Positions 1,979 through 25,129 of a DNA stretch of 64,000 nt are shown one piece after another. Origin of the DNA: Amphiscolops sp. MND2022 (taxonomy: Eukaryota); the NCBI GenBank assembly GCA_964187785.1, contig OZ076409.1, forward strand, positions 53,880,001 to 53,944,000. Direction: 5' to 3'. Every line of letters starts with the position of its first letter. The stretch's first letter is position 1. The notes under the pieces are model-generated. The model saw nothing but the letters and a program-made list of their open reading frames with translations. It made no database searches and was not told the origin of the DNA. The position numbers and the translations under genes are program-made.

Positions 1979-2900
1979 TGCCGTTTTCGCCATTATCTGG
2001 GGTTGTCATATGTTTGCTAACGTTTCAAGCATCGTTTGAGTGTTCCTTTTTGTTCCAGGTCCTCATTGGAGAATGCTGGCTTTTTCCTGGATACTGCCGT
2101 GAATCAATGTCTGAAGCTGATGCATAGAGTCGATGATGGTATCACAGTCTTGGTGCTGGTTGCCATGTGCAAAACCCCTGAATTAAGTGAAAAAGTTCAG
2201 TGATGAACTCAACAGAGTTATGGAACTATATGCACATATCGTGTTTTTTTTATATTGGAATGATTCTTTTTCTCATATCTAATTCCATTGAAAGTTTTTC
2301 TTCTGCCTATTTTTTCAGCCATTAGGGACGTTCAGGATTAGCAACACTGTTATCGACAAGCACTTTTTTGAATAAATGGAGATTTGAGCCAACACAATTG
2401 TCGTTTTTGAAGAAAATGTTTACAGTCTTGCACAGATTTTTTTTGAAAATTGATTCAAGCAGCTTGGACATTTTTTCAAAGCACAGGGATGATTTTCCAA
2501 GCTGCAGGGAATTTTTACAAGAATTTTCCATGCAGGGTCCCTGAATTTTCTATGTTTTTTGAAAAAATTAGTCTGCGCGCTTTTATACTGCATGTAAAAT
2601 GTTCCTGTAGTTTCGACCAGGGAACAGCTTTAGATACTCAACTTATGAGCGCTATAAATGCTGCGATCAATGAGAATACCACAATAGGGCTAAAGAGGAA
2701 CCCCGAAAACAAGAAAGACTGCGAAAAAGTTCATTCTATTTAACTCGTGTCCATATCAGGGAGAAATCTCTAAAGATTCGCATCAGAGTTAGGAGATTTT
2801 GTTTTCCTCAACATCTACTGTGTTGTCGTAATCAAGCACACCCATTTCTGACTTCGCAGATAACATGATCACTCAAGACCGAATATGTCTTCACACTGAT

Positions 2901-4386
2901 TGTCGTAACCATCATCATCACTTTGTTCGAAATCTACTAGATTCTCCCTACGGTGATTATTCTGGTTACTGGAAGTTGCGATTAATTTAGGAAAGTTCTC
3001 TCCTGAGTCCTGGCAAAATTTACTTTTATGCCGTCCATGTGACTCAAGGTCTGGATTTTGAGTCATTTGGGTGTTTCTATCTGGATGCCGTCCATCTGAC
3101 CGAAGGTCCCATTTTGTGTTTTTAGCTTCCCTATTGCTCATAATTACGTTTTCAATGCTTGGCAATATCCTTTCCTCAATTGCTGAGTTTATAACCTCCA
3201 AAATATGAGAATTCAAGTCTGATTTCATTTCCTCTATTTTCCTTGACATTTGTGACGAAATTTCTGAGTTTATCATTCTATCAGTCTCAACGGTAATTTC
3301 ACTGTTTTCACTCAGATTAGTGTTTAGGAGTGATCTATAGTTTGGCTCATTTTGGTCTAAGGCCTGTTGCCGTCTTTCTGACTCGGGGTCAATCCCTATC
3401 TGATCAATGGCTTCTTGATCTCTATTTTCACTATTGGTATAATTTCCCAACATTACGTCTAAATTTTCAATATCTGACATTACGTCAGAGTGTCTGGGGC
3501 GTTTCTCTTTTGCCTTTTGCTTTCTAGTTGAAGGCATATCAATAAAGAATTTCGGATTTCAACAATGAATTGAATATCGCGGTAATGTGAACAGTGTGAT
3601 TGTAAGTGTATTGAATGAATCCTCTCTTATTGGAAACGTACATATATATACCAACTACTGCATGACGCTCAATATTTAGGGTGTCATTTATCAGAAATAG
3701 TCATGATGTCATTGTCTAAAATAGCATCTTCTAAAAATAGACTAAAAGGGTCAAATTAACCTTACGTCATTTGCCCTATTAACTATAAATAGCAACAACA
3801 ACAATTTGATTCTAATAGCTACATGTTAACAGCAACAATATATGCGTTCAAAATGATATTAAGCTAAATGGACCAATGGTCATTGTGGCGGCAGTATAAT
3901 ACTGGTTACTGCAATGTGATTGGTCAAAAGTAGTTCGGACAACGCGTCAACTTGACGGCAACGCTGTACCAGTTGAACGCGTTTCCTGTATATTGTCAGC
4001 TTACAGCATCAATTGATTAATCATTAATCCAACTTTGTCAATAGCAACAAACAATTTACTACAGGTCTGTGTGAAATACTAGTTCACAACAGGTAAGGTT
4101 TATCGTGAGTAATGCTACATGTCATTTATGACGGTAAAAATACAAGTAGGCGTTTGCCGTCGGGCTGACCTTAGGTCACAATATATAAAGTAAATGCGCA
4201 CAGTGACTAAATTAGGCAACGAAACAGTAAGATATTGACATGTATAGTAAAATAATGGTATTCGTGAATGTTTCTATTGAGTTCTGAGTTCTACCTATAT
4301 TGGGAGGACACCTGGGCCGGGAACGTTTGAGTCATCTTCAGGGGTGATCTGATATAGTAGACCGTCGCAGGCGGCAGCCTCCGACA
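2901..4386 (-). repeat. 3' LTR of element 1 (1486 bp); contains a copy of the gag 5' end (ORF 2869-3537)
   Basis: Near-identical to 21463-22955: about 15 substitutions plus 9-bp and 2-bp indels, counted by eye. Confidence 0.95.
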
Positions 4387-5122
4387 CTCCCCTGGGGATG
4401 AGAATGAAGGATCCCGCCTTCATTCCGGCTTCGAAGGCGTCTCTTTTTGCCAGCCTCGTTTCGTAGGATTCGCCTGCAACGTGTGTACGTTCTAAGTAGC
4501 CAAGTGTAATTTCCTCTTTGATCGCAGCGTAGTCTTTCCCGCACACTACACATCCCGTGTAATAGACATCATTTGGCTGCCCACAAGTCCTACTGATGCT
4601 TATTGCCAATCCCGTAATGTGAGGGTTGTTAATCCAATTGTCATCTTGAGGTGGCAAGTGGGTTTCTCGCGCATCATCATAAGCTGGTCTCTGGTCAATT
4701 AATGGAGGAGACAGAGGGGATTCTAAGATTGGGTTGAATTGGCTACATTGGGCTATTGGGTGATCACTAGCAGATTGCCCATAATATGTGGGGGGAGGAT
4801 TCCCAACGAACCAATCAATCAATGAATTCGAGGGTTCTGTAAACGTACTCACTGATTCAGTGGGTTCACTGATGGGCAAGTTAAGATCGTTGAGACATTC
4901 AGTTAGCTCGGTTGTCATGGCCCTTCCTGCCGCTAATTGTGGAAGGAATTCAGTATTGTATCGGTAGCAAGCCAAAACTTGTATATCGTCGTCCTCGCCG
5001 GTAGCATCTAGAATATCGTCAGCGGAATTTATGGAGTCGACGTCCATATCTTCATCTGACGACTGGTAGCTTAGATCTACTAGCAATCTGGGAAGTAATT
5101 CACAGTTGAATTGTAGAGCCAT
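4295..5122 (-). CDS. Accessory sense ORF of element 1 (~275 aa from ATG 5122; acidic/Pro-rich, CxxC motif), ends inside the 3' LTR
   Basis: Open frame 4295-5287 whose first ATG gives MALQFNCELL. Contains TCGQ...GCVVCGKDY. Stop lies ~90 nt inside the LTR. Confidence 0.65.
   Translation of the reverse strand: MALQFNCELLPRLLVDLSYQSSDEDMDVDSINSADDILDATGEDDDIQVLACYRYNTEFLPQLAAGRAMTTELTECLNDLNLPISEPTESVSTFTEPSNSLIDWFVGNPPPTYYGQSASDHPIAQCSQFNPILESPLSPPLIDQRPAYDDARETHLPPQDDNWINNPHITGLAISISRTCGQPNDVYYTGCVVCGKDYAAIKEEITLGYLERTHVAGESYETRLAKRDAFEAGMKAGSFILIPRGVSEAAACDGLLYQITPEDDSNVPGPGVLPI
4387..4393 (-). promoter_or_regulatory. Polypurine tract (AGGGGAG) of element 1
   Basis: Purine run on the minus strand immediately before the TG of the 3' LTR. 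Confidence 0.7.
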
Positions 5123-5771
5123 CTCAGCGTTGTGTCGATTGAGGAATATCCTTTTCGCAATTTTGCTAGCTTGAATTCGAGGCGACTGATTTTCAGAACG
5201 GTAGGATGAGAAGTAAACTTTTGCCGTCCGCCTGACCTTAGGTCCAACCCCAATTTTGGCGGGAATACGGCGCGGGGTTTCTCCCAAATCATAGTTTCAA
5301 CTTTTTCCTTTTTAGGTTTTGATTAAGAGTAGAGTCTCAAATAATTTTCGAGCAATTTATCTGCGAAGCTTGTTAATAGCCTCTTCAAGTTGTTTTACTT
5401 TATTCTTCAAAGGCGTCACTTGACAATTTAAGTGTCGTTCCTCTTAATTCTCTGTCAACAATTAACTTGAAAGACCGTCGGTCCGTGTGACGGCAATAAT
5501 GATGACAACCAATCAGGTGACGCTAATTTGAATGAAGAAACGTGGTGAAAGTTTTCCTAATTGTGAAATGAAGTAATTAATTTGCTGCGTTTTAGGGAAG
5601 AATAGTGAAATAAAATAACAGGGAAGTCCATGAACATTTCACTGGCAGGCTCCATATCATGGATTAGTAATGAGGAAATCTAATTAGTGCAGATGAGGAG
5701 ATGGTAACAAGAGAACGTTTTATATGTAGCCACGACGTCCAGTTGGTAAGAATAACAACAGTCATAATATT

Positions 5772-5781
5772 ACTAATAATA

Positions 5782-5859
<78 letters not shown>

Positions 5860-5869
5860 TTAATAATAA
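5772..5869. repeat. (TAA)n microsatellite, left part
   Basis: Near-perfect ATA triplet run. Confidence 0.95.
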
Positions 5870-8800
5870 GTAATCGTAATGCCAAACTACACCCAATTTT
5901 ACACTGCGCAGGACAAATGACACCGCTAAGTAAATATCAGTGCCAAGTTACACCTTTATTATTAAGATATTAAGTGGGGTATTTGGTATGTGTAGATTGT
6001 TTCCAAAGGGGTTTCTCGTCCTTAAGAATAACCTGCAAAACTGTTTTCCGCAAGCCATTTAAACCCATACAGTGGCACACTAGTTCCACAAAATCTAACG
6101 CAATTCTTATGATGACATACAACACCAGTTTATCACCCCATGATTAATCACCAGCACTCAATTTTCAGTACTAGCACATTTCCAATCATGAGATAGATTT
6201 GGTGAAAGTTAACCAAATTTACGAGGTTTTTTCCCCTAATTTGGGAATAATGCTTTAGTTTCGACGAAATTAATTTCAGGAAAAACAATTGCTTGGTGAA
6301 ATAACTGATACCGAAAGTAATAAAGCTCTCGTTAAACTTTTTAAAACTAGGTACAAAATCGTGCATTGAAAGAACCATGAGCGGAAATGGGATCTTTTTT
6401 GTTAATTCGCCCCACCGATTCAATTCTCACCGCTAAACGGTTAAGGGAAATTATCAATGAATTATTAAACTACAATCGAATTGGAGTTCATGCGTTCAGT
6501 TTTTTATGGTTTACATAGTAGCAAACAACCATTAGCATGAAATTTATCTGAAATGTTTCATGTTCCAATTTTCAAGAACTTTCTTTTTTTTTCTAAAATT
6601 CCGAGTGAAAATTAACAGAAAAATTTCGAACAGTTTAGTTTTTTTTTCGAATTCCGTACGAAAGTATATTATTCTTCACGGAAATTTCAACAACGAAGCC
6701 CCCCCCAACACGGAGGAACATTTTAATCTTTAAAAGTATTCCACTCATATGAACATCAATAAAAAGGTAAATACCAAATAACATAAGAGCAAATAACTTA
6801 AGAACAAAATTAATTTCAAATAGCATAAAAATAAAACCGAAAACCTGGTTAAACAATCAAATTCACGAAACTTGATTTGTAATTTTCATACTTTTTCCAG
6901 GTAATCTTTTGAATTGTGAATGATTTTGACCAGTAAAACTTTCTCGTAAGCAATTTTATGTTTATGTTTGGTGAAACTCAATTAATTTTTATGTTATTTG
7001 AAACTAATTTTGTTTTTATGTTGTTTGCTCTTATGGTACTTGGGAATTCACCTAAATAAAATGTGCTTTCGTGCTGGGGGATTCACAAACAAGGTGTACC
7101 TGGGAGAAATAATTATAACCCATTTCAGGTTACAATCTCGCAGCAAGGTTCAGTAAGTATTATGTCGACATCGTTTGCTGAGAAATTTAATTATTCAATC
7201 TCCATTTCAACTGACTGACAAGCTGAAATGAATATAATTGGTGAAACTATTGGCCAATAAAACGCAATTGTGCATGTCTTCAAAAATTGTCCTCTGATAT
7301 TAAATATTGGAGTTGTTTGTCCTTTGATTTTTAATGCGGGGGTTATTTGTCTTCTGATATTAAAAATGGAGTTACTTGTCCTTTGGTATTTTTAATGCGG
7401 GGGTTATTTGTCCTCTGATATTAAATATTGGAGTTACTTGTTCTCTGGGATTTTCAATATAGGGGGTTATTTGTCCGCTTCTATTTATATAGGAGTTATT
7501 TATTCAAACCTCTGGTATTCAAAATAGAGGTTGAATTCTGGAATAAATATTCTGGAGATTATCTTTGTCAAACTTTGCAGATTAATACGACCACCTTGTT
7601 TCTTAATTCCCACCAGGCAGTGGCCAAAAACTCCGAAAGTTTATTTATTTATTTCAGTTGAAAAAATACGCAGATAAGCAAAGAATGAAAATTCAACCGG
7701 TGCTCTCGTTTCGGTCCGCCCCACGTTTTAAAATCCTGAACCCGCCCCTAATTATTTTCGATAGAAAACATCAATATCGACGTTGTAATTGAAATCAAAT
7801 AAATGAAGTAAATTCAGTTTAATTCACAAACGAACATGTGCTTTTGTGTTGCGGGAAATACAAAACAAGGCATACCTGGCAGCAATAAGAATTATGCATT
7901 TCAGGTTACAATTTTCTCGCATTAAGGTTCATTTAGAATTATGTCGACATCGTTTGCGATGTAATTTTGGTCCAAAAACAATAGTGATGTCGTCAAATAA
8001 TTTTTATTTCATCTGACTGACAAGCTGAATTTAATTTAATTGGTGGAACTCTCGGCCAATAAAAACGCAATTATGCATGTCTTCAAAAAGTGTTTGAAGC
8101 ATTGCGAATATTGCTAAATGAAGCAAAAGGATATTATAAAAAGCTTTGCGCTTTGGAAAAATAAATCGATGCTTCAGGTATGAGAATGAAATAATAATCC
8201 CAAAAACAACCATATGCTGATAAATGCTGCAATACGACAGGCTTGTAATCTTGGAAAAAATGAAAGTTCTATTAGATGCAACTAATACTTATTTGGAAAG
8301 GATTTAGTAATGTAATTTATACGTTGTTTTGAATTTGCCAATCAAATATCTAAACAAACTAATTTTTGACGTTTGTCACGCGGGAGAGAAACGTTATTGG
8401 ATGATGGAAAGAAACCAACTAATTTATATTTAAATAAAAGTTGACCAACGAACGTCACGAAGTCTTTCTGCTTTCTAGCGTGACTAACGTCAAAAAGGTT
8501 TTCTGCTTCCGCAAGTTCGCAGTTTCGCATAGTGATTGTAATAGATTACCCATGTTCACCCTTGATTGACACAATTACAAATCGAAATTATTTAAAGTGA
8601 TGAAGTTTTCATTTAAAGAATAATCCTACTTTAAAAAAATTGAATGTCTGACAAGCTGAATTGCAAGATCCAGAGTTGTTTTGAAACAATTATTTTCAAA
8701 TAGTTGAAACTTTGAAAGCTCAAGAACTTTCATGCATTCAGTTTTTCATGATTTACATAGTAGCAAACAACCATAAGAATGATAATAATCTGAAATGTTT

Positions 8801-9820
8801 ATTGTTTCAATTTTTTGTTTGAAAAACAGCATTAAAAACCTTATCAAAACAAGAATTTGTTTCAAGAATGAAATGACATTTTTCGGGGGCAATTTTTTAT
8901 ATTTTATATATTAAACAACTTTGATAAAAATTACAAAAAAACTTTCTGATGGGGGTGTTAATTCTTATTTCCCTCATGAGTTGCACCTTGTTACGAATCC
9001 TCCGATTTCACGGAATTGATTCCAAAACGTGCTTTCGTTTGGAGTGGGTTCAAAAGTGTGAAATCATTGGCGAATGCGGCAGCAAAGAAATTTGAGCATA
9101 AACATCATTGATCAAAAATACACAAGAACATGCCATTCTGATTTCGGGAGGGGGGTTAATTTTTATCTCCCCCATGAGTTACACCTTGTTACGAACACCC
9201 GCCTCCCCAACTCAAGAGGTACCTGGGAGAAAATTTCATAACCAATTTCAGGTTACAATTTTCTCGCAACAAGGTACCTCTAGAATTTTAGAATTATTTT
9301 GACATCGTTTGCTGTGAACACTTTGGTTCAAAGTGAAAGTTCACATGTCATTTTGCATACAAGAATTGCAGCAATGGTATACGTGCCAGAAGGAGTAATT
9401 TGTCATCTAATTTGCCGTCCGCAGAACTTTTCAAGCAGCACAAATACTGTACCATATCTAACTTCTTATACACCAATAGTCTGTGCGGTAATTGGTGTGA
9501 ATGGCCTAATTAACGATGATGCGCCATAATACTACAAAAACATTCAGAGTGTAGTTTGTCCTTAAGATTATCTGGAAGGTGGTTATTTGGTATTGGGAAA
9601 AGGACCTTAATAATTCAAGAATTACGCGATCAATTTCGTTCAAAGTTTGGCAAATTTCTTTTTTAAGGGTTTTCAGCTGCTTCCCTAAATTTCGTTTTCC
9701 TACTACCCGTGGAAGCGAAGATTCAGGATAATGCCAAACTACACCCCAAAGAACCCCTCAGCTGGTGGTGTTTGGCATGTGGTAGAGTACAACTGTGGGG
9801 TTATTTGGTACTGCGTTTAC
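5870..9820. mobile_element. Non-coding TIR insertion (PIF/Harbinger-like) nested in the (TAA)n tract
   Basis: Imperfect TIRs GTAATCGTAATGCCAAACTACACC / GTAAACGCAGTACCAAATAACCCC (17/24 matches), TAA on both sides. Internal direct repeats at ~7060-7290, ~7835-8090, ~9215-9330 and at ~6485-6570 vs ~8730-8810. No long ORF. Confidence 0.55.
7287..7530. repeat. Tandem minisatellite of ~30-33 bp (TTGTCCTCTGATATTAAATATTGGAGTTA-like)
   Basis: About 7-8 diverged units visible. Confidence 0.8.
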
Positions 9821-9871
<51 letters not shown>

Positions 9872-9890
9872 TAATAATAATAATAATAAA
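9821..9890. repeat. (TAA)n microsatellite, right part
   Basis: Near-perfect ATA triplet run. Confidence 0.95.
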
Positions 9891-10532
9891 CAAAATAGAG
9901 TAATAAAAGACTAAGTTGTGGCGTTAACTTGACAGTACGAATTAGTAATTAGTCAGTAGTGTGATAAAGAGTATGGGAAGTAGTATAAAAGTACATTTGG
10001 TAACAATTAATGTCTTGCCGTCAGGATGACTCATAGTCAAATTTGCTCGCGGTGGTTGAATAATACTTGATTGTGAACTAGTAATACCTTGCCGTCAGGT
10101 TGACGCTGAGTCCACTACCTTGTGCTGCTGTATTAGAACCTTCCACTTATATCAATTGTTTTCTCGTGAAGTATCACTTGAGCTAGACTGTATTACCCAG
10201 TGATCAGGATAGTCTCTCTGAGCTCGAGTTACACTTTGATAGGGTCACCATACCAGAATTTTCAACTTTTCGCCAATCGAGACTTTCGAATTGTTTATCG
10301 ATTCGAATTTGAATTCTCATTTACTTATTCCTCCTTTAGTACAATCTTCCCCATACAAAAGATCTTACTACACGTCACGTTCGTTCAGACACAAAATTCT
10401 GTGGGAAGGATTTTAACAACATTCTGCTTTTCTCCATCGTGAAAGGATATTTGGAGTAGTGTTGCCAACTCAAATAACTCTCTTCTACTTCAACATACAG
10501 CAATTGGGGCACATCAATTTTGCTGATCAAAT

Positions 10533-13500
10533 ATGGATTCAACATCAGGTTGGTTCCTTTTTAAAGTGTTAAAATTAGGCTTGATCAGGGCTCGTAATTT
10601 TAACTAAGTTACATCGTGAAATGTTTGCTGTCAGCATGAACACTAAGTCAAAGAACTTCCCGAAGAAATTTAAATGCGGTAAGATGGATTCATATTCAGG
10701 AAGTGAACCGCGATTATTTATCTCATTCCGTTTAGGTAATGAGTCGAACGGCCAACCTCTCCAAGTTGCTGCTGACGAAGAGAAAATGGATACTAGCGAT
10801 TCGTTTGTCACTGCTGTCTCCAATGTTGGGAATCCTTCTCCAACAGGGGCCAATACTTGCGGTCTACCTGAGTCAGAAGTCAATGCCACTAGCCTTGAAG
10901 GAGTGATAGAAGTAACTGCAATGAGTATTGAGGAACGTGAGACGGTCACTGACGCGTTGCAAGCCAATGAAACACTGGATCCCTCAGTTGAGGTAGCACA
11001 AGGGTCTTCAGCTGTTGAGCCCAGTACTGCAACCACTCCAGACATTGCTGCCGGGCCTCCCAACGTTGAGAGTAGTAGCACCGACGAGAGCTGTGACGCA
11101 CACATCGCCAGGAAATGGGAGCAATGGGGCACTTCACAAGAACCGTGTACCTCCAGTCAAGCCGACGGCAAAGACGCTAAGTACAGTGAAAGCGTGATAA
11201 TGGAATTAATACCTGGACAGCGTCCCACAGACTACAAAGAGGCTGACAATGACTCTGTGTCTGAAGTGGCATTTTTGGATACCCCAAAACTACCACTAAA
11301 AAGCAATTTGAAGTCTCTGTATCGACCTACTGAGGCTAAGGTTCAAAAACTCTGCGTTAAAATGGGAGATACGAGAAGAGAACATTCCATATCTGACTAT
11401 GAGACCAAAGGACTTTCAACTTCGGAGGGATACTCTGCCGACGAATTTGAAGATGCTGGTCAAGATGATACCGTCATCCGGGTATCACCGAATAAGTCAG
11501 GAAGCGACCGCGCACAAGAATCAGATGGGCCGATTGGATCAACGGTAGCTGAAGCATTGTATGCGCCTGTGCAGTCAAATATGTTCCGAGTTAGTGACGT
11601 GGCCAGTAATACATCTGCCGATTTCCCTGAGGTTATGCCACGGGTTGCTCAATTATCTGCCAGTGGACGTGCCTTAATGAAGGAATACTTTGAAGAAGCA
11701 ACTCCTGTCCGTTTGCCTCCTGGGCATTCTACTCTCGCTCTCAACGAGGGACAAGTTAGCCACATGCTAAAGGTTTTGGCTGACGAAGCAGTGAAATCGT
11801 CCCTGAAGGCCATGGAAAACTTAGTCCACCAAGCCAGTCGACTGAACCTTGGGCAGCAGACGTCAACCGCTTTTGGTATGCCTATGTCAAGGCGACCTTC
11901 TTCTCGAGGTAGCGATATTGACTCGCAGTCCGGATTCTCCTCAGGCCATGCCAGTGATACTAGCGGAGCCATCAAAAGTAATGATGATTTGGGCAGCATT
12001 GGTTATGTCTATGAACACTCCGACCTAGAAAGCCAGCGGATCACTCTCCCTCCAGCAGGTCCATCCGGAAGCCGTCATGCTGACCTTGCGTCCCCAGAGG
12101 TCTCTACTCGTGTGGATAGTCCTGGAGCGCAGACCTTGGCTGGACTTAAGGCGGAAGCAGTTGCTGAGAAAGTCAGGTCAAGTTGTCGGAAAAAACAGCG
12201 CAAGGCGCCTGCTCGGTCCGGTGGGGGAAATAGACATCACGTGACTCGAGCCTGCAAAATGATGAAGGAGGCTTATTTCAAGGGGATGGAGTGGACCAAG
12301 ACATTTGTGTCCGGACCAGTAGACCCACGCTGGAACCCCCACAAATTTTACTGCCAAATATGTAAAGGCAACATATCCATCTACGGACGAGGCGCCAGGG
12401 AGATACTCCGTCACCACGCCACTGAACGCCATCTCAGGAAAGATCAGAGGTGGCGTTATGAACATCTCTCAACCAAAGATCCCATAACAAAGCAGGTGAA
12501 GCACTACGTTCGCGGGAAAGACGGCCGACTTCTCACTCCTTATGAACTCCAGCTGGAGTTACCCAAATTCATTGGAGTTGAACTCATTGATATCGGAGAG
12601 AAATTGCCGTTCTACGATGAGTACCTACAAGGAACCGACTACATGGCTTCGTCATCGGAAAATTGGGTCCGAGTGCAGATTTCAGTACTAGGCAATTATT
12701 TACGAAGTTACGGAGACATCAGTACATTGAGGGAATTTTGGCGAGACATTGGAGTAGTAGTAAACCACCAGTCTCTCTTCACTGATTTCGACTGGAGTAA
12801 AGAACGTTTGTCGGTGAGTAAATTCTTCTAGTCTTCTTGACCTTGGGTCTTTCCTAGGAACGTTGTATTTATCGTTCTTTTATCGTATCATTGGTGTTTT
12901 CCAGGTTCTTTTTCACCATCTCTTCTTACAAGTGATGCGCGATGTGGCTAGTCACGTGATCGCATCGGGAGAATACTCACTTGAGTTCATCAAGCAAGGT
13001 GTCTGCCTGCTGGTTTTCGTGCGCTTCTGGAGGAAAGACGAGTTGTGCCGTGTGTTCTTAAAGCGGACCGGACGGGTGTTAGGACAGTCGTCAGCTGAGT
13101 TGGGCCTAATCAGTAACGTAATGGCTGCCGTATCCACAAGTCCCAACATTATCTGCTGTTCAGGCAGCTCATTGGAGAAGATTCACCTCTTCGACAATTC
13201 ACCTTACTGTGAACATGGACTGCAATGTCCATTCAGATTTGAGGACTTTTCAATAGCCAGCCTAATGCACAAGGAAAGCTACAGCGTCTTTGGGCGGATC
13301 GATTTCCATTCAGTCCTAAAGTATTTAATTGTTTTCTTGGGCGGATGCTTGGATTGTGATTGGACAATGATGACACCAATACTAGCTAAGGTTAGATCCT
13401 GTCTTGTATTCACCTAGTAGAATTACTTGTCTAATGAGCAAGGGTTAGTAAGTTACGTGACTTCAGGCCGTACGAACTTGTCAGATTGAATTGGCTACTC

Positions 13501-14966
13501 TGCCCACACTCTGTCAGGAACTGTTAACGAACTGGACAAAGATCACCACTTATTTGAATACTCACGCTCCTCCTCACGAAATGATGGGAGCTCGAAAGCA
13601 GGTAAGATACTGCCGTCACTCTGACCACTGGTCCAACAAGATCTGATTTGATTTCTTAACTGCTGTTTCAGCCGCAGGACCTAGAACGTGCAATGATTCA
13701 CGATGAACTATTTTTGTGCCGACTTGAACTTTTCTATCGCTGGGTCAGAGATTGTAAGTCTTGATAGTCAAACTTATGCATCCGTGTTTGGTTTTGTTTT
13801 GGGCATAATCAATGTCTCGTTTAGATACCACTAGCTTTGTGCCGCATCTTGTAGAGAGACGAGACCACGGGTTCCATGTGTACAGACAACTGTGCCAATT
13901 CTTGTTCAAACTGGGCAGGCGTTGCATTAAGCCAAAAAGCCTCCCACAAGAAAGTGACCTGTCCGGAATCCTCAACATAGCCGTGTCTGACGCCAAGGCA
14001 CTAAGCGTGACTGACTTCATCGCGCGCTCCAAACTTGATCAGAGACTGAAAGTTGCATGCAAAATAAAGGCTGACAAAGAACTGAGCGACAAAAAAGGCA
14101 ATCGATCCAATCTGCCTAAACTCATTAAAGAAGCCAAGGAGGAGTTCGGTCGACTTGGGCGCAGTTATGTTGCGTATCTATTTCACGCGACCCAAAACAA
14201 TTTGCAGCTGACGTCTGACATAGTGAAGGGGTTGGGATCATTTGACCTCGAAATTATGTTCCGGTCTCCCCTCAGCCAGGCCTTGTACTGCTTTAAGCAG
14301 CTCTTCCGTAGTTTCCATCTCCGTGGGTATTTTCAGGCGGACGACGAGTCTATTCTTACAGAGGAATAACTGTCATTTCTTGATGAACTGCGAAAAGAGA
14401 TGCCTGATTTGGAACAACCCAGAGTCATAATTCTTGATGCTGTCTCGTACATTTCCAAGCATTCGGCCTTGCAGTCTCGGCCCCATCTCACTCGAATTTT
14501 CAAATTGAGTTGTCTCTGCCTTGATGAGAGTTATACCAGCATGCCAGTAGTGAAGTTTGGTCCCGTCCGCACGGATGATCCTAAGAGCAAGCTCATAGAT
14601 ACCATTTTGCCAGTTCAATCCTTCTTTATCAACGTGGGACGAAGTATAGATAGCCTTACATCAGCCTCTTCAATTGCCAAATTCTTGGCCTTTGAGCCTA
14701 ACTTTGGAAATTCTGCCTTTAGTGACACATATTGCCCTTGGGACAGTCTTGATCAATTCAACCGCAATACGATCCTTGCTACTTTGAAGCCCGAGTCAAA
14801 GAAAAGAAAATTAGACTCTCGGAAATTGAGGTTCCAAAATTTGAAGCGGGGCAATAGTTCTAAAAGCCTTCCTCCACCCAGCGCTAAGGGGTCGCCGATC
14901 AAACGTCAATCTGACAGTGAGCTGCCTACTAGTTCTAGAGTTCGATATTTTGATAACGATTGTTAA
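10533..14966 (+). CDS. Antisense, spliced zinc-finger (BED-like) gene inside element 1. Exons 10533-10548, 10736-12813, 12905-13390, 13467-13601, 13672-13753, 13825-14966; ~1312 codons with one premature TAA at 14367
   Basis: Five GT..AG introns with phases 1,0,0,0,1 join the separate ORFs into one frame. Contains the CQIC-x14-HH-x4-H finger. AATAAA at 15131. The first mini-exon is the least certain. Confidence 0.8.
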
Positions 14967-15150
14967 CTGTACTTTATGTACATTTGTGTTTATCTGTATT
15001 TATGTAATCTTTCGTTTGTTTGTACTTTTGAGTTTTTCTGTTTATATAACCGTGTCATTTGTGACACCAAGGTGAAAAGACAGTCTGGGCCTAGCAAATG
15101 ATTAAAGAATCACAAAAGATATGTCAGGCCAATAAATTCACGTTTTCTGT

Positions 15151-18100
15151 CTAGTATCTGTATTCGTCAGTAAAGTTGGGGGTAGGATTGGGGCGTAAGT
15201 TATATTTCCCTCCCCTAGGACTTTCGTTTTCTACAACGTAATCATCAGTTTCTTCAATTAATACATCGGGCACGGTTGTATCGTTCCCTCCGATATTTGA
15301 AAAATCAGAATTTCCATCCCTGGGAGAGTCCCGATTGGGCAGATTATCGTTTCCCAATTCAGTACTTTGTTGCCGTCTGCTGGACTGACGGTCTTCATTA
15401 GGTAGGTCGCGCGCATACTGATCAGAATTATCAGACTCAGTATTTGTTTGCCGTCGCGCGGACCGAAGGTCCGCTTCAGCTACTTCACGCGAGTGTGAAT
15501 CAGAATCCGCAGCGTCAGTATTTTCTTGCCGCCGCGTGGACCGAAGGTCCAAATCCGTGATTATAGCGTCTTGTTCATCAAAGTGAGTAGGAGAATGGTT
15601 GGGAATGATTTGCTGTTCAGTACTAGGAGGGAAATCATCGAAATCGCTTTCCCATGAAATAATGTACAGGTCGTCTTGCGGGATATAATTTCATCATCAG
15701 CTTGTAAATTTCCTTCAGGACGAGTATCTTGTAAGGTAGTATTTGGAGTATATTTTCGAAGGCGTATTCGGTGTAAAATTTGCGTTTTGTTAGAATTAAG
15801 TTTGCGCACTATATAATTCTCGTTAGGAAGGACCTTTTCGATGACATATGGTCCAATCCATCTAAATTCTCGAAATGGGATTTTAGAACTCTGATGATCT
15901 GCTAGTGGCTGTAAAATGAAACAAAAATCTCCTTGTTCTAAGGGAGCTGCTTTAGCCTTCCTGTCGTAATAGTCTTTGTACTTTAAGTATGATTGCATAA
16001 TGTTTTTCTTTGTTTTATCGATAAGAATTTGAGTGCGGCGTTGGAGTTCTTCAGCAAAGTCAGTTGTTGGTATGATTTTCGGGTTGGGGTTCAGACCTAA
16101 CCTATGGTCCAGGATGTTATAAGGCACTCTGCCATGAAAAATTCTGGATGGCTCGCAACCTAGGCTAGAGTGGTAGGTTGTATTGTAATTAAGGACAGCC
16201 AAAGGAAGGTATTTATGCCACTGGCGCCTGTACTCTCCTGATGCCATTTTGAGGTTTCCTTTAAGGCTGGCATGGGTTCTCTCTAGTTTACCTATGGTCT
16301 GAGGATGCTTTGTGGTGGCGCATTGAAGTGTGATGCCCAAAATTTTTGCTACTTCTGATACTACGCGAGACGTAAAAGCCGTTCCTTTATCTGTGATAAG
16401 TGTCGTTGGTAGATACGTGTGTCGGGTCATGATGTCAATGAGAACTTTTGCTGTACTGATGGCCGACGCGTCCGTTACGGGATACGCGAAGAGGTATCTG
16501 GAGAAGACATCTAAAGCTGTTATGATGTTTTCATATCCTCCACTTGGTGGTAGATTGGGTAAAAGGTCAATTTGTAAGGCATCTTCCGGGCCTAGATCCC
16601 ATTCAGGCAAATTTAGTAATTCGGGTGTGATTGATGCGTTAGCGATTCGTTTGTCTTTGATGCAGATTTCGCACCCTTGGACCCATTTTTCGACGATTTT
16701 TGCAACGCCCGGATAATAGTATTTTTGACGTATTTCATGAAGCATTTTGGAAATTCCCGGATGTTTATTCGCAGTTTCATGTAAGGATTGGAGTAATTCA
16801 GTAACAAGATGTTTTGGTAGTAACACCTGACAAAATTGTACACTGCCGGTTTCATCGTAATAGTCTCTGTAGATAATATCTGCATGAACGGACAGACGGT
16901 CAAGTTGACGGCAGTAATGTCGGTAACGTGGATCTTGCTATAAGATGGTTTCAGAGTATTCTTCTTTTTGTAATTTGAGGCGTAGTTGTTGCAATGTGAT
17001 GTCATTGTTTTGTTCAATAGCCATGGTGATTGGTTTCGCTAGTTTTTGCAAAGTTGGAGTCTGGATTTGGGTACTTTTATGTAGGCTGAGTTTATCCAAA
17101 GTAATATCAGGTAGTTGATTTGTAGGATTTGACCTGGCCTCCTTTTTCCGTTGCCATAATTGTTCCTCAGTTTCTTCATCATCGTCTGTATAGAATATCT
17201 GGTCCTCTTCAGTCACTCCCGCTGATTGGACATTAAGTTCAATGGGTGTAGTGGGAATGTCCTCTCGTATGCGGAGTACAAGTTTCTCTTTGGGACAGAT
17301 TTCGAGACGAGAGAGATAATCTGCGGCGGTGTTGTTTTTCCCTGGTATATGGGCAATCGTGAAGCTGAACTGAATAACATAGTCACACGCATTCCATAGC
17401 GTTGGTGGAATAGTTTTCGTCTGAAAAAAGCGAGGAACTGATTTGTTGTCTGTTAGAATGATCACCGGTGTCGGGGTCCCCCAGAAGATGTGTCCAATCT
17501 CCTTGAAGGCAAAGAATATCGCTAAGAATTCTTTCGCATAGATGGACATTTTCAGCTGGGCGGGACTAAAGGTCTTGGATCCATATGCTACTGGTGCAAA
17601 GGCTTTGCGCGTTGAACTATATTTTTCCATTGGATCATCCTCGATGAGAACTGCATAACCTGCTGCCGAAAAACTAGCGTCTGTCATCAGGGCTATCTGT
17701 TTGTTGGGCAGGGGTTGTTTGAGTGCGAGATCACAACATCGGTCAAGAGCTTTATTGATCTCGGTGAATTGTTCTAACAGTTCGGGAGTCACCATGACTT
17801 TGGCATCATTTTTCAACAGCTTGAAGAATGGTGTTAGCTTTTCAGAGAGCCTTGGAATGTAATTGCAATAGTAGTTTAAAAATCCCAAATATCGCTGAAG
17901 TGCTTTTTTGGATTTCGGAAATTTCGTTTTCTCTAGGAAGTTTTGGACCCTGGGTCGGTGCGGCCGCACTCCCTCAGGAGTGATGGTGCGTCCCAGGAAG
18001 TCAATTTCTTTGGCTCCGAAGTGACATTTGTGCATCGTTAATTTAAGACCTGCGGTTCTGATGCATTCAAAGGTTGCTCGCAAGTTGTTGATGAGTTGAG

Positions 18101-20312
18101 TGGCACTGTTGGCGGCAATCCCAATGTCATCGACATATTGAGCACATTGATCCGCTTTAATCACTTTATCTAGGTATTCACGCATGAAACTTGAGAAAGC
18201 TGATAGGGCGCGGCTCAAACCTTGCGCGAGTCGGCGGTAGGCAAAAGTTCTACTGGCGAAAATGAACGCCAACATCTCTATGGACCTCTGGTCCGCCATC
18301 TGCAGACAGTGATATGCCTGAGAACAGTCGAGCTTGCAGAATAATCGTTTGCCTGCCATGTGTTGCGCTGCATCCGTTAGTGTACTGACAGGATGGTTGT
18401 TGTTGATATAATCGTCGGAAATCAAATTGTTGATTTTTCGGAGGTCAACCAACAGTCGTAATTTGCCATTAGGTTTTTTCTGGGCAAAAATGGGACTCGC
18501 ATATTTGGAAAACGGTAGTGTCGTTATGATCCCATAGCGGTGGCGTAGCGCTAATTCAACAAGAATGTCTTCTTTGAGGTTGATAGGGGTAGGTAGGCTT
18601 TGACTGTAGGCAGGAGAGTCGTCTTTAGGGGTCAGTGTGACTTTGAAGTCCTCGTTCATACCTATATCAAAGCGGTGCCTTGCAAAAATGTCGTGAAACT
18701 CGACAAGTAATTCTTCAATTTGGGCAATTTCAACTGGATTTAGCGTTGAGTCAATCCAGTCAAAATTGGCAGGAAACTGTTTCCTGGACTCAGGGTCATC
18801 CTGAGGGTTGAGTTTCTCTGAATCCTGAAGGCTTTGTAATTCCCTGAGGATTCTTTGTTGTATGGGTGTATGTGTCTGAGTGTCTCCTGGTTCTTCTGGG
18901 GTCGGGAACCAATAGTTTTCACTGTCTTCGCTAATCTTCGGGGATTTGATGAGGCTGCTGGCATAGTATGCAGCATTTTCCGGATTATCCTTCAAAAAGT
19001 GCCAGGTGGTCACCGGGTCGATGGGTTTGACATATTTCATCTGTTCTGGGGTGAGAACAAAGAAATTTGCAATGTGCGAACCTCTTTTGATAGTGTAAGG
19101 CTGGTCATTGAAATTGTTGACATGGATCGATACCTGACCTTGGGTCAGTGTGACGAGAGCAGCGCAGAAGGTTATATCACCATCTTCTGCAAGGTCATTG
19201 CTCGGTTGAAGAATTCCAGTGACGTTTGTGTCGTCATATAGTTGTGAGGACATGGAGACCATATGTCTGTCGTTGGGGGGAATAGTTATATCCTCCCGTG
19301 CACAGATAGGTTCCATGACATTGGTGTACTTGTGGTCAGCTGTTTTCAATTGCATGGAAAAGAATGGGAAGTTTAAAATTCCCTGTCGCATGTCCAATAT
19401 GGTATTGTTCCGTTGCAGGAACGAGAGACCAATGAGCGGACTTGAAAGTTTTTCCATGACAATGAAGATCTCATGGAAATCGATGTCCCCGACCTCGAAT
19501 TTGAGTTCAACTGTGCTCTTTGGATTCTCCAGCTGTCCATTAGCTACCATAATTTGGAAGTTGGGTGCCGGGCCCTCTTTAATTATGAACTGAGGGGCTA
19601 GTAATCGGATTTTACGTAGATGAGCTTCTGGGATCGCGCTAGATAGGGCTCCCGTGTCTACAAGGCCATCTAATGTTAGTTCGCCAAAATCCATTGGAAA
19701 GTAGAGCATGCGGCGTTTATATTTGCGTCCCAAGTTGGTGGTCAACGGGAAATAGTCAGGTTCACCATTTCGTGAGATCAACGTGTTCACATAGCGTTCT
19801 TCCACTGTTGCCGTCAATGTGATCAAAGGTCCATTGTGTGGAAGTTCTTGTGTGATTTCCTCCTGGATTGGTGGGTGGTTGTTAATCTGCCCCTTTTGCC
19901 AGGGGTCCACAGAGGCCATGGATAGTTTAGTATGCTGTAGCTGATCAATATGGTGTTGATCAGGTTCGATATCTGCAGCATTTTTGGTGAAGTTTTTGTA
20001 GAAGTGTAGATGATGCTGGTTGTAGATTTGAACGTCCCAATAGGGGTCGAAACCAAAGTCTGGGTCGGGATAATAGGGATTATAGTTTTCTATGAGGGGA
20101 AGAGTGCGAATAGTCATAGTGTTAGAGTGCTGTCTATTGAACTGAAGGTCCAAATTGTGTAAAATGGTAGGAGTTTGTTTCACCTGCTGCTGCCAGTCAG
20201 CTGATGAATTTTCTTTAATGGGGGAATAATATTCTGTATAATAGATAGTAGGAGGGTCAGATATGATATGTTGTCTGACGCGTAGTTTTTCATTAATCTG
20301 GAGTCGTGGCAA
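15151..20312 (-). pseudogene. pol: pol of element 1 (protease, RT, RNase H, integrase); a few frameshifts near 16940, 16830 and 15690
   Basis: Protease LVDTGA; RT YVDD; RNase H TDAS...TDNK; integrase HPG..CEIC, QIDL/DVFSR/TDKG/LERTH and GPY module. Confidence 0.95.
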
Positions 20313-20314
20313 AG

Positions 20315-22108
20315 CTAGTTTTTTGAATTTTTGAGAATAGAAGTAGTGGGTTTGTTATTGGAGTCATCTTGACTCATGGGATTTTCCTCGGTTTTGGAAT
20401 TATCCAATTTGAGGTTTTTGGGCTTGAGGTGGGCTCCAGCGCCTTTCCAACACCGTTCCGCCGGGTGATTCGTTTTGTCGCAAGTCGGACATTTGGGATA
20501 TTCCTTCTTCGTATCCTGCCCGCCATTGCGCTTTTGTTCCTCCTTTCTCTTGAGTTTTCGGCAGTCATCTGTGACATGTCCCGGCTTTTTGCAATAGTTA
20601 CAAGTGATATTCGGGTCAATGCCGGATGAAAGGAGACCAGTTCCCGGTCGTGTTGCTGTGGGGGCAGTGGACATTGTGGGGACGTGAATGTCGTCACCTT
20701 CCTCAAGTCCATTCAATTCTAATTCTCGTTCGAGATGTGTGACAATCTCTTCATACGTAGCGTTTTCAAGTCGCGACTTGTTGACTGAACGTTTCAGTTT
20801 GGGTGGTAGTTTGGCGTAAAGTAAACTGTCAATCATTGCTTGGGCATGTTCCCCAAAAGCTTTTTCAGCACCTTGGTTTAGTTCTTTAAGGAAGTCAGGC
20901 AATTTCACAGTATTTGGATCAAATACCAATTTGTGCCATTTATGTTTGGCGGTTGCCTGAGATTCGGGTTTGACATATTTCCTACGGAAGACTGCTAGTA
21001 TGTCCTCTAGGGTTTGTCTGTTGGTTGAATTGATGTTGCGAAAAGTTTGTAGGGCGTTTTTGCGCAACAGAGAGTGGAGATGGTTGATTTTCATTGTTTC
21101 CGTCATGTCTGGTTGCATCTTTATCATCGTGTGAAAAAGATCTTCGAACAGTTCGAACTTTTCAGATTTCCCGTCAAACGTCAGTGTGGTCGTACTGACT
21201 GGGCGTACCATCAGAGTTTGTGATGGTTGTTTCGTGTTCATCCCCAGAATGACATCTGCAAGACGGTTGATGGGGTCAACTGGGGGTTCGCGGGGCGTCT
21301 CCTGAGTGTTAATTGGAATTGGATTTTGCTGAGCTGGGAGGGTTGTTTCCAGCGTATCGTCAGTGCTGGGATTTGGAAGGGGAATAGTGTTTCGGGATTG
21401 CATGGGCCGTCCGGTCAGGAATTCTGGGACCATATGTGGGGTAAGGTTGGCTCCTGTCACCATGTCGTAACCATCATCATCACTTTGTTCGAAATCTACT
21501 AGATTCTCCCTACGGTGATTATTCTGGTTACTGGAAGTTGCGATTAATTTAGGAAAGTTCTCTCCTGAGTCCTGGACCTGTTGGCAAAATTTACTTTTAT
21601 GCCGTCCATGTGACTCAAGGTCTGGATTTTGAGTCATTTGGGTGTTTCTATCTAGATGCCGTCCATCTGACCGAAGGTCCCATTTTGTGTTTTTAGCTTC
21701 CCTATTGCTCATAATTACGTTTTCAATGCTTGGCAATATCCTTTCCTCAATTGCTGAGTTTATAACCTCCAAAATATGAGAATTCAAGTCTGATTTCATT
21801 TCCTCTATTTTCCTTGACATTTGTGACGAAATTTCTGAGTTTATCATTCTACTAGTCTCAACGGTAATTTCACTGTTTTCACCCAGATTAGTGTTTAGGA
21901 GTGATCTATAGTTTGGCTCATTTTGGTCTAAGGCCTGTTGCCGTCTTTCTGACTCGGGGTCAATCCCTATCTGATCAATGGCTTCTTGATCTCTATTTTC
22001 ACTATTGGTATAATTTCCCAACATTACGTCTAAATTGTCAATATCTGACATTACGTCAGAGTGTCTGGAGCGTTTCTCTTTTGCCTTTTGCTTTCTAGTT
22101 GAAGACAT
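20315..22108 (-). CDS. gag: gag of element 1 (597 aa, two CCHC knuckles)
   Basis: CNYCKKPGHVTDDC and CPTCDKTNHPAERC knuckles; lies directly upstream of pol. Confidence 0.92.
   Translation of the reverse strand: MSSTRKQKAKEKRSRHSDVMSDIDNLDVMLGNYTNSENRDQEAIDQIGIDPESERRQQALDQNEPNYRSLLNTNLGENSEITVETSRMINSEISSQMSRKIEEMKSDLNSHILEVINSAIEERILPSIENVIMSNREAKNTKWDLRSDGRHLDRNTQMTQNPDLESHGRHKSKFCQQVQDSGENFPKLIATSSNQNNHRRENLVDFEQSDDDGYDMVTGANLTPHMVPEFLTGRPMQSRNTIPLPNPSTDDTLETTLPAQQNPIPINTQETPREPPVDPINRLADVILGMNTKQPSQTLMVRPVSTTTLTFDGKSEKFELFEDLFHTMIKMQPDMTETMKINHLHSLLRKNALQTFRNINSTNRQTLEDILAVFRRKYVKPESQATAKHKWHKLVFDPNTVKLPDFLKELNQGAEKAFGEHAQAMIDSLLYAKLPPKLKRSVNKSRLENATYEEIVTHLERELELNGLEEGDDIHVPTMSTAPTATRPGTGLLSSGIDPNITCNYCKKPGHVTDDCRKLKRKEEQKRNGGQDTKKEYPKCPTCDKTNHPAERCWKGAGAHLKPKNLKLDNSKTEENPMSQDDSNNKPTTSILKNSKN
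20318..20324 (-). promoter_or_regulatory. -1 ribosomal frameshift slippery heptamer A AAA AAC at the gag/pol junction
   Basis: In the gag frame directly before TAG. A -1 shift opens the pol frame (CTA GCT TTG CCA...). Confidence 0.8.
21445..21462 (-). promoter_or_regulatory. Primer-binding site TGGTGACAGGAGCC.. of element 1 (tRNA not assigned)
   Basis: TGG starts immediately after the LTR-terminal CA and lies within gag codons (D-M-V-T-G-A). Confidence 0.75.
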
Positions 22109-22955
22109 ATCAATAAAGAATTTCGGATTTCAACAATGAATTGAATATCGCGGTAATGTGAACAGTGATTGTAAGTGTATTGAATGAATCCTCTCTTATT
22201 GGAAACGTACATATATATACCAACTACTGCATGACGCTCAATATTTAGGGTGTCATTTATCAGAATTAGTCATGATGTCATTGTCTAAAATAGCATCTTC
22301 TAAAAATAGACTAATAGGGTCAAATTAACCTTACGTCATTTGCCCTATTAACTATAAATAGCAACAACAACAATTTGATTCTAATAGCTACATGTTAACA
22401 GCAACAATATATGCGTTCAAAATGATATTAAGCTAAATGGACCAATGGTCATTGTGGCGGCAGTATAATACTGGCTACTGCAATGTGATTGGTCAAAAGT
22501 AGTTCGGACAACGCGTCAACTTGACGGCAACGCTGTACCAGTTGAACGCGTTTCCTGTATATTGTCAGCTTACAGCATCAATTGATTAATCATTAATCCA
22601 ACTTTGTCAATAGCAACAAACAATTTACTACAGGTCTGTGTGAAATACTAGTTCACAACAGGTAAGGTTTATCGTGAGTAATGCTACATGTCATTTATGA
22701 CGGTAAAAATACAAGTAGGCGTTTGCCGTCGGTCTGACCTTAGGTCACAATATATAAAGTAAATGCGCACAGTGACTAAATTAAGCAACGAAACAGTAAG
22801 ATATTGACATGTATAGTAAAATAATGGTATTCGTGAATGTTTTAATTGAGTTCTGAGTTCTACCTATATTGGGAGGACACCTGAGCCGGGAACGTTTGAG
22901 TCATCTTCAGGGGTGATCTGATATAGTAGACCGTCGCAGGCGGCAGCCTCCGACA
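21463..22955 (-). repeat. 5' LTR of element 1 (1493 bp); contains the gag ATG (22108) and a TATA-like run near 22211-22219
   Basis: Direct repeat of 2901-4386, followed by TSD CTGAT. Confidence 0.95.
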
Positions 22956-25129
22956 CTGATTTTTGCTTTAATGCGACAAATTACTTATCTTTGTCACTCC
23001 ATGATGGCTCTTCATCAGAAAGATATGCGCTAAGCAACGTATTGGCACTCACTGTTGCAATATCAGACACTATAAGAAATTAATGTTATAAAATTATAAA
23101 GTGATGATGTCCGTTTCTACAAGAGATCATGATTTCTGTCCCTGGATGATCACCGGAGGTAATCTTCTGCCACAATGCGACACTTTAAGTGCTCCAATAT
23201 GACATCGTGAAACCGTATTATTACAATTTTGTCCTTGCAGGAGAATGAATTTTCAATATGATGGAGCAAGCCAGGAACGGCCCAAGTCGTTGCCCCACTC
23301 AAAGATAACATCCAAACTTTTTAAATTTGCGAAGGGATTCGCATAAAACTGGAGAACCTCTATTTTCCCAACTGGGAACATCAAAAAACTGATTTTGCAT
23401 CTCATGTAATCTCATGAGATCAGTCAAGAACCAAATCCGATTTGTTAATCTTGTGCAAGGTCCAGGTATTTGCCTCGATTTCGACCCAATCTCAATTACA
23501 ATAATTGATAGACGCAAAGACAATGATTTCTCGAATTTTTATGTGGATACTCTCCTTCTCGCAGTATTCACTTAGACTGTTACCTTTCATTGCCCACTTC
23601 GGTCTTGAGCGTCCTAAGGAAGCCGGGAATGTGGAAAAAATTACGCTGAATTGATCTCTCAGTCGGAGAACCACGGGTTTTCCAGAAGCGTCTAGAATGG
23701 GTATTTGTGCCTAGCGCGAGATTGATATTGTCTTAAAATAAATTTCCAATTGTTCCGTCAAGTTGATCATGAAACCATTTATTTCCAATTCGAAAACAAT
23801 TTTAGTGAAAATATTGAAAAAGCTCTGGTTGAAATTTCGAAGAAAGAGAATCACCCTGCTCGGTGAATGAAAAGCCTGAAACATCTAGTGTTCAAAGAGA
23901 CAGCAAGGCTCAGTTGTCAGAAAAAGACTTCCAATATATAACATACGAAATCGAGAATGGACGGTGAAGAGAATCAAAGATAATGACGATACCCAGAAGC
24001 ATCTTCTAAAGTTGACAGCAAATAACCGCGAAAATCGATAGTTTAAACTGAAACGTCAGTTTATAACTTTTGTGTCGAAAGAACAGACAATTTCAACGCT
24101 TTTTTTGAAATCTGTTTGCTATATTCGATTTTTTTATATTGTAAACGTTAGACCAGATCTCACGCTCGTGCCTTCAAACCACACAACCTACCCTCTAGGC
24201 CAAATATTAAGTGTTCGTGTACGTGTAAGTAAGTAGTTTCAGTAGTTTCTACCGGAAAATTTTGAAGAAAAAATGCTATCCAAAAGAACCAATTTGAAAC
24301 TAAGGATTTTCAGTTTCCGAAATGTACATGCTTAACTTCGATTAGAAATCATTAGATATAGCAGTTTGAGAGCATGTCTGGTTGTTTTACATTTCCAATT
24401 ATAGTTGCGGATATCAGAACAGCAAGTTCAGAAGCAAGAGTCCGAGTAGTAAGGTCCGAACTTACGTTCTGAAGGCTCCTGTTTCAACATTGACGAGCTA
24501 TGTAGTGTTTCATACTGTTACGGTCCCACTTGCACATTTTGGCATACAGTTTCACTCAGTTTTACAGTTTTGAAAAAACCTAGAGGCACGAAAAGTTGGT
24601 TGTAATGCTGGACCAATTTTTTTTAATTCATAAAAAGGTGACTCTTGCAAACTCGTGCAATTTCGACTTGAAAGTTTGTGGTAAATGTAGCGTGATGAAA
24701 CGTGCCTGATAATTACAGTGACGACATCGCCCGACCACAGAATTTATACGTAGTGTCCATTTTTCAACAGAGTTGATCACGCCGCCACTCAGCCTGGTGG
24801 TTTGGATGCGTGCTTCACAGTTCGGTTCACCAGCACTGAATCCATTCCACCGAGAACTAAAATTTTTACCTAGAAAACTTGACGGGTTGAGAATCCTTTG
24901 GGGAACTTTCGGCACTATCAGACTTTTTCCGAATACAATAACTTTTCGATTATTCATTTTCACAAATTTGGTTCTTTAATATTTTCAGTTCCGCCCTTTC
25001 CGATATTTTTGGCACTTGGAAATCCATTAGAAGCTCCTTAAAAGCCACCTTGAACGAAAAAATGCACCGAAAAATAAATGATATTCTTGTCAAAGAAAAA
25101 TCCATCAGTGGACGGTCTTATACAAAAGT

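Follow-up and report, generated by a model that had tools for sequence, protein, structure and literature searches.

How might a retrotransposon recognise its own copies? The question is raised by a locus in Amphiscolops sp. MND2022, where a Gypsy long terminal repeat (LTR) element carries an intron-containing zinc-finger gene antisense to gag and pol and is studded with copies of one short palindrome. The element occupies positions 2901-22955, minus strand, of the window, by which we mean the whole 64,000-nucleotide stretch analysed (contig OZ076409.1, positions 53,880,001 to 53,944,000), and CTGAT is duplicated on both its outer sides. A first-pass annotation of this DNA had proposed a self-regulating element, with the antisense product acting on the repeated sites. 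The observation itself is confirmed and its interpretation, judged by sequence comparison, is partly supported: we see a slightly better than even chance that the element's own finger protein, assembled as dimers or larger oligomers, binds the palindrome of its branch, covers the integrated element and maintains it in an active or unsilenced state.

We begin with the sites. The 24-bp composite motif, of which about 21 copies had been noticed, was matched 23 times when up to two mismatches were allowed, where 0.03 matches would be expected, and every match falls within the element; 12 of the 23 are the two LTR sets, which leaves 17 independent composite sites. These lie in both orientations (12 and 5), as expected of a double-stranded site. 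Genome-wide, 664 exact composite motifs were found against 1 for a reversed control pattern and, judging by 100 matches listed, they belong mostly to family copies with variable spacers. De novo analysis reduced the composite to alternating GAC/GTC half-sites with an 8-bp period, the core being the palindrome GAC-N5-GTC, found in LTRs, introns and coding DNA. This dyad occurs 35 times in the element against 4.0 expected and its spacing is exact (N4 3, N6 5); among 64 N5 palindromes, GAC/GTC alone was enriched (7.97-fold and 4.36-fold, next 2.0-fold). The motif had been described as clustering in the LTRs and upstream of both accessory genes, which describes the 12 LTR composites and the pairs upstream of ORF2 (the sense accessory open reading frame, ORF) and of the antisense gene, but not the core palindromes, 19/35 of which lie in coding DNA. 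Composite motifs outside the LTRs include the following.

5221..5496, both strands (5221 plus, 5473 minus): two composite motifs, 5' of the first Met of ORF2
10015..10112, plus strand: two composite motifs upstream of the antisense gene (motif scan)
13610..13633, plus strand: composite motif within intron 4 of the antisense gene, kept in subfamily B though the rest of the intron diverged
15370..15549, plus strand: three composite motifs with 78-bp spacing, inside the integrase C-terminal tail (motif scan)

Beyond the element's own sequence no dyad enrichment was seen: 5 against 3.2 expected in the flanks, zero in the nested insertion and 4 against 1.4 in the neighbouring env-bearing LTR element, which lacks dyad enrichment and served as the control for dyad counts. 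This distribution argues against an alternative that we consider unlikely, in which the palindromes are sites for host DNA-binding proteins, the branches having switched between two or three host factors, while the antisense protein does other work such as RNA handling or integration targeting. On its side, TGACC-N3-GGTC resembles everted nuclear-receptor half-sites. Moreover the host BED protein ZBED1 recognises a palindrome whose halves are GTC and GAC (PMC7471704; papers are cited throughout for the portions of their text available to us).

The antisense gene lies on the plus strand between pol and the 3' LTR, with six predicted exons, all GT-AG, and 1312 codons. The six-exon structure first proposed stands except at its 5' end: the tiny exon 1 is predicted only and uncertain, and a start at 10687, giving five coding exons, also fits; many relatives open with a similar MDS/F peptide there. 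The predicted first intron (10550-10735) is about 84% identical between subfamilies. Since this exceeds the conservation of the coding DNA that follows, the intron probably contains a further signal or an alternative start.

10533..10548, plus strand: exon 1, predicted; alternative start at 10687
10736..12813, plus strand: exon 2, with low-complexity N-terminus, conserved middle helices, basic patch, zinc finger and helical domain
12352..12432, plus strand: C-x2-C-x17-H-x4-H finger (C545, C548, H566, H571) with upstream W525, of putative BED- or matrin-like fold
12905..13390, plus strand: exon 3 (splice prediction)
13467..13601, plus strand: exon 4 (splice prediction)
13672..13753, plus strand: exon 5 (splice prediction)
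13825..14966, plus strand: exon 6 (splice prediction), holding an in-frame stop

Presence of the gene in other copies had been set in advance as a sequence-level check, and it was found in sister copies and divergent loci alike. The genome searched comprised 1.07 Gb in 1929 contigs; the DNA search returned at least 44 matches (39 scored of 1673 candidates) and the protein search at least 150 at 77-100% identity (best 150 of 8100 candidates). In subfamily A, the ratio of non-synonymous to synonymous substitution rates (dN/dS) against the window copy was 0.18-0.50 in 19/19 comparisons. The in-frame stop at 14367-14369 is private to the window copy (0/19 sister copies). In subfamily B (72% DNA identity), both copies available (2/2) are open over 1302 codons with every splice dinucleotide kept; synonymous sites are saturated (proportion of differences pS 0.77-0.83) and non-synonymous differences (pN) amount to about 0.10 over the finger and C-terminal parts. 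We also fetched 14 divergent loci, picked from the search matches to span branches. An integrase or integrase tail lies just downstream of the gene on the opposite strand in 13/14 of them, and gag start, ORF2 and integrase occur together in 10/14; of the other four, two did not extend far enough upstream, a third showed the integrase tail but nothing else and the last (L032) had none of these within 9 kb. Exon breaks fall at the same places among relatives 30-50% identical in protein. By these comparisons the antisense gene is an old, selected and fixed part of the lineage, fixed because an integrase adjoins it on the opposite strand in nearly all the divergent loci.

We give next to no weight, therefore, to the idea, already largely refuted, that the gene rides along as a passenger transposon, nested or captured, and that the motif is what remains of its sub-terminal repeats. 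Every scoreable subfamily-A sister (17/17) does carry stops or frameshifts in the gene, as a passenger might, but the strong purifying selection between subfamilies and the shared introns and position across such distant branches do not fit it, nor does the maintenance of sites inside pol and the LTRs. Terminal inverted repeats, the mark of an independent insertion, are likewise missing around the gene, with no shared inverted seed of ≥10 nt between 9881-10540 and 14967-15400. In uninserted copies the gene starts about 2.1 kb from the 3' LTR, beyond ORF2. As separate observations, three accessory-gene matches stand at 14,673-bp spacing in G000:C7:62496160-62526636, suggesting a tandem array of elements sharing LTRs, and the best scored matches of two finger relatives (P0023 and P0141) in the host genome reach 31-39% and 26-39%; since neither has a close match among the scored host candidates, the family probably extends to other genomes.

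The sites proved to be conserved together with the gene, conservation of the antisense frame, its splice sites and the motif having been proposed as a check. Between subfamilies A and B, 41/48 dyad trimers were intact against 93/214 lone GAC/GTC trimers, and in non-coding DNA only, 17/18 against 18/37. Within dyads, core bases were conserved at 86/90 positions and spacer bases at 51/75. This comparison shows selection acting on the sites as well as on the antisense gene.

If protein and site belong together, both should change between branches. We scored dyads in 14 elements, the window's and 13 loci, L022 being left out as a near-copy of L021. GAC-N5-GTC was found in six elements (window 35, L021 18, L025 27, L024 26, L026 21, L030 17). 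Five others have GCC-N6-GGC (L023 10, L029 10, L027 12, L033 9, L034 8; expected 1.3-1.4) and only 1-2 GAC-N5-GTC each. In a further branch, GTC-N5-GAC stands alone in 2/3 elements (L028 8, L032 10; expected about 2), the third, L031, having no clear dyad. The dyad type is thus constant within branches and near-exclusive between them, and the TTGCC arm of the 24-bp motif belongs specifically to the sub-branch of the element in the window. Because several elements of one branch are kin, these data amount to only about four independent contrasts. Hybrid sites also occur: GCC-N5-GTC in L030 (13 against 3.7 expected) and GCC-N6-GTC in L027, L033 and L034 (11, 14 and 14 against about 3.6). Two sister branches with near-identical fingers both take GAC and GCC half-sites and differ mainly in spacing. 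Because hybrids occur in sister branches, the comparison indicates that one G(A/C)C half-site is reused, with spacing and orientation changed. As to position, the GCC-N6-GGC branches (L027, L023, L029) have one dyad within about 25 nt of the LTR terminus, which is lost there in the window's branch.

In the mechanism we infer (expression, binding, oligomer, transposase origin and direction of effect), the transcript of the antisense gene would come from the strand opposite to that of the genomic RNA and be spliced; this orientation would let the introns survive reverse transcription. Its product would be a relic of a hAT-type DNA transposase, keeping the N-terminal finger and an oligomerising body and having lost catalysis. 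Two or three such fingers would bind G(A/C)C half-sites head to head at fixed spacing, much as two Hermes BED fingers cooperatively bind a quasi-palindrome while a third binds an adjacent repeat (PMC10368747). Since 17-35 sites are spread from end to end of the element, copies of a branch would be coated by that branch's protein and so stay transcribed or be shielded from host silencing. Protein and site would drift together, which could explain why the observed branches have palindromes that differ and hardly overlap; the copies of each branch may be marked by a protein of that branch's own.

The proposal of a regulator with its own cis-sites hence gained from the change of motif between branches, which is as lock and key would predict, but several results weigh against it. 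The GCC-N6-GGC elements do not form one clade on the accessory-protein tree (ten elements; approximately unbiased (AU) test, p 1.7e-6), so that the dyad must have switched at least twice and the same dyad is found in two branches. Only four columns of the accessory protein track the switch, with conservative changes in all but one, whereas a role-swapped control gave eight, and among finger residues none follows it. At the position of the base contacts made by Hermes BED (PMC10368747), the loop and helix of L027 are nearly those of L030. Finally, within elements the two bases of the dyad's inner pair covary toward complementarity (54/119 against 38.5), which would be compatible with an RNA or cruciform role. 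The recurrence of GCC-N6-GGC in two unrelated branches and the finger residues that do not follow the dyad are what switching host factors would give; that a single G(A/C)C half-site underlies all three dyads and that sister branches carry hybrids suits one drifting protein better. Dyad spacing could be set by the oligomer rather than by the finger.

The covariation toward pairing would also suit a role at the RNA level, as for Rev or the C. elegans CERV protein, in which the dyads form short hairpins in the genomic RNA and are bound by a matrin-type finger for export, protection or packaging. The matrin fingers of TUT4/TUT7 head the weak structural matches, and CERV is an LTR-retrotransposon export factor made from a spliced mRNA (PMC10309623). 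We regard such a role as improbable: the stems would measure 3-4 bp, a single sequence is enriched among all the N5 palindromes, G-U-compatible variants show no consistent strand bias, the directional composite lies on both strands and no Rfam match was found.

Recognition of the dyads by another protein of the element (ORF2, Gag or integrase), with the antisense protein as a cofactor or unrelated, seems to us slightly more doubtful still. Integrase varies little across branches with different dyads (57-96% over 83 residues), which speaks against it. ORF2, the second accessory ORF of the first-pass annotation, is real.

4295..5296, minus strand: ORF2, sense accessory ORF with a stop-to-stop length of 333 codons, located between pol and the 3' LTR (ORF listing)

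It is kept in the same branches as the antisense gene, its divergence is biased to third positions (0.58 against 0.30 and 0.22) and its tree largely mirrors that of the accessory protein; against its being the reader of the dyads, a Pfam search gave no match and no known DNA-binding fold. The first Met of ORF2 is at 5122, yet conservation begins at 5164, with a KIAKK block upstream of that Met in 10/10 elements aligned; because of this upstream conservation ORF2 is probably spliced, with an unrecognised 5' exon. The C-terminal part, which overlaps the end of the LTR, contains a conserved CxxC along with an AACDG block.

We return to the finger protein, which we favour as the binding factor, and to its origin. 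The finger fits the BED signature C-x2-C-xn-H-x3-5-H/C with an upstream aromatic (PMC7471704) through W525 and C545-x2-C548-x17-H566-x4-H571. The label 'BED-like' is nonetheless weakly supported, the zf-BED profile of Pfam being found in 1/70 members of the finger family (E 0.0099) and zf-C2H2_ZN292 in 18/70. Atlas rows gave zf-BED 12% and zf-C2H2_12 47%, at 0.89, as leads only. The predicted fold of the finger domain is confident (predicted local distance difference test, pLDDT, 86) and the first row returned for it by Foldseek is the BED finger of ZBED1, at a weak E of 1.1. Beyond the finger, exon 3 resembles by eye what we take to be the RNase H core of hAT transposases, with the catalytic aspartates missing, and the order of conserved blocks likewise looks hAT-like. 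No aspartate is conserved at the by-eye positions of the aspartate-aspartate-glutamate (DDE) triad, in a register taken from that presumed pattern and not from alignment to a hAT protein. Searches of PDB and Pfam with shallow, split profiles gave no hAT match for exon 3 (10 rows) or exon 6 (9 rows). The protein is probably a catalytically dead relic of a hAT-type transposase, as judged by eye; the DNA-transposase-like origin first suggested has that reading in its favour, the profile searches being blank.

Among hAT transposases and host-domesticated ZBED proteins, Hermes and ZBED1/DREF have an N-terminal C2H2 finger of BED signature and bind palindromic short repeats cooperatively (PMC10368747, PMC7471704). 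Unlike them, the gene described here has no terminal inverted repeats, no recognisable catalytic triad and no significant profile match, and it is carried inside a retrotransposon, whereas hAT/ZBED genes are free or host-domesticated. The closest parallel in proposed working is with the anti-silencing protein VANC of the Mutator-like VANDAL elements and TnpA of En/Spm, where, as here, an accessory protein encoded by the element comes with many short motifs within it; motif and protein differ between families (PMC5735166, bioRxiv 10.64898/2026.08.24.746577), and regulators have arisen from transposases that lost catalysis (bioRxiv 10.64898/2026.08.24.746577). Those systems are plant DNA transposons with non-palindromic motifs, often tandem in non-coding DNA, and with binding and demethylation proven, whereas ours is an LTR retrotransposon, its palindromes spaced and also in coding DNA, with no detected homology. 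By this analogy the system would work like VANC/TnpA but is not a member; the words 'retrotransposon' and 'LTR' have 0 occurrences in the main text of the preprint.

The first comparison drawn for this element was with HBZ of HTLV-1. HBZ, a small bZIP protein acting through host factors, is likewise an antisense, spliced regulatory gene inside an LTR element, and to that extent the analogy is apt; but no bZIP match was found among the antisense exon frames in Pfam, and our sites are element-wide and not centred on the LTRs. Because they are so spread, a coat of the VANC/TnpA type fits better than an LTR regulator of the HBZ type. CERV of Cer1 is also a spliced regulatory gene within an LTR element, acting as an RNA export factor (PMC10309623), and antisense HTLV genes are mentioned in PMC7264820 and PMC11963269; the available descriptions of HBZ and CERV include no element-wide array of cognate DNA sites. 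Closest in position are the conserved antisense extra ORFs that plant Gypsy elements (Grande gene23, RIRE2, Retand TRP28; PMC7264820, PMC11963269) have between pol and the 3' LTR, and the antisense ORF brtn of fungal Boty, cited in PMC8365987. These are proposed to be nuclear or DNA-binding regulators, with function described as unknown (PMC7264820, PMC11963269, PMC8365987). The position is shared and the proteins differ: the available text of these papers gives no cognate site, whereas the gene described here has five predicted introns, 1300 codons, a finger and a branch-specific palindrome.

In the literature searched, which left most subscription papers and Repbase reports outside its scope, so that a prior annotation could exist, we found no retrotransposon combining a BED-like antisense gene with cognate palindromes; nor do the available portions of PMC6431247, PMC13547354, PMC8220671 and PMC9911081 contain such a system. 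Extra genes in antisense and sequence-specific regulators encoded by transposons are both on record; their combination in a retrotransposon we did not find described. The role of antisense extra genes in LTR retrotransposons is an open question (PMC7264820, PMC11963269), partly since no candidate target accompanies any of those described in those portions. In the present family a conserved protein occurs together with an exactly defined candidate site, in at least three natural variants. If the proposal is true, sequence-specific self-regulation, proven in plant DNA transposons, extends to retrotransposons, and a transposase has been domesticated by another mobile element and not by its host. 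The branch series would also be natural material on how finger proteins change half-site and spacing. A bolder history, which we offer tentatively as falling short of probable, is that an LTR lineage acquired a DNA transposase, inactivated its catalytic centre and made of it a private DNA-binding factor, each branch writing its own palindromic address dozens of times along the element, even inside pol, in a VANC-like lock and key across transposon classes. Lock-and-key self-recognition may underlie the spread of the lineage to hundreds of copies in this genome.

As to the element itself, the target-site-bounded Gypsy structure with gag-pol initially described is correct. Self-comparison of the window gave one long direct repeat, the two LTRs (2901-4386 and 21463-22955) being 98.3% identical (15 mismatches in 1483 aligned bases) with ends TG...CA. 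Pfam matches place protease (PR), reverse transcriptase (RT), RNase H (RH) as well as integrase (INT) in the Gypsy order PR-RT-RH-INT, with dUTPase between PR and RT; gag matches DUF1759 (E 7e-7) and zf-CCHC (E 0.047, below its cut-off).

2896..2900, plus strand: left target-site duplication CTGAT (flank sequence)
2901..4386, minus strand: 3' LTR, with 6 composite motifs and a copy of the gag 5' coding region
4387..4393, minus strand: purine tract before the 3' LTR, a weak 7-nt run like a polypurine tract
5870..9817, no strand assigned: nested insertion of about 4 kb in an (AAT)n tract, a short-repeat patchwork with zero GAC-N5-GTC
15151..20354, minus strand: pol (PR, dUTPase, RT, RNase H, integrase; Pfam), with composite motifs at 16891 and 19808
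20315..22108, minus strand: gag, its ATG 848 nt inside the 5' LTR
21450..21462, minus strand: TGG-initiated primer-binding-site candidate directly after the 5' LTR, no tRNA matched
21463..22955, minus strand: 5' LTR, with 6 composite motifs
22956..22960, plus strand: right target-site duplication CTGAT (flank sequence)

The window copy is decayed: besides the in-frame stop in the antisense gene, its pol is broken by a stop codon (16938-16940) and changes frame near 15690. Its LTR spacing is 18.6 kb, against about 14.5 kb in most sister elements, because of the nested insertion. That insertion recurs in 1/17 sister loci checked (L002, G000:C9:33925589-33931730), a full-length element on a different contig, which means that the enlarged 20-kb form has been copied as such. 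Since gag begins inside the 5' LTR, its frame runs through the primer-binding site and about 215 gag codons are duplicated in the 3' LTR (1.49-kb LTR); the gag start lies within the LTR region in every branch whose fetched stretch reached that far.

Elsewhere in the window, a second, older LTR element lies at 25534-43350, plus strand, with 363-bp LTRs (98%), a decayed gag-pol, several extra ORFs and, in addition, an env-like ORF at 36864-38984 (Pfam Monjiviricetes_fusion, E 3e-21). A 308-codon ORF at 45935-46861, minus strand, has no Pfam match. Two self-complementary stretches, at 49502-49631 (130 bp at 91%) and 53434-53688 (255 bp, short repeats), resemble miniature inverted-repeat transposable elements, and a coiled-coil-like ORF of 224 codons at 51369-52043, plus strand, is probably a host exon.
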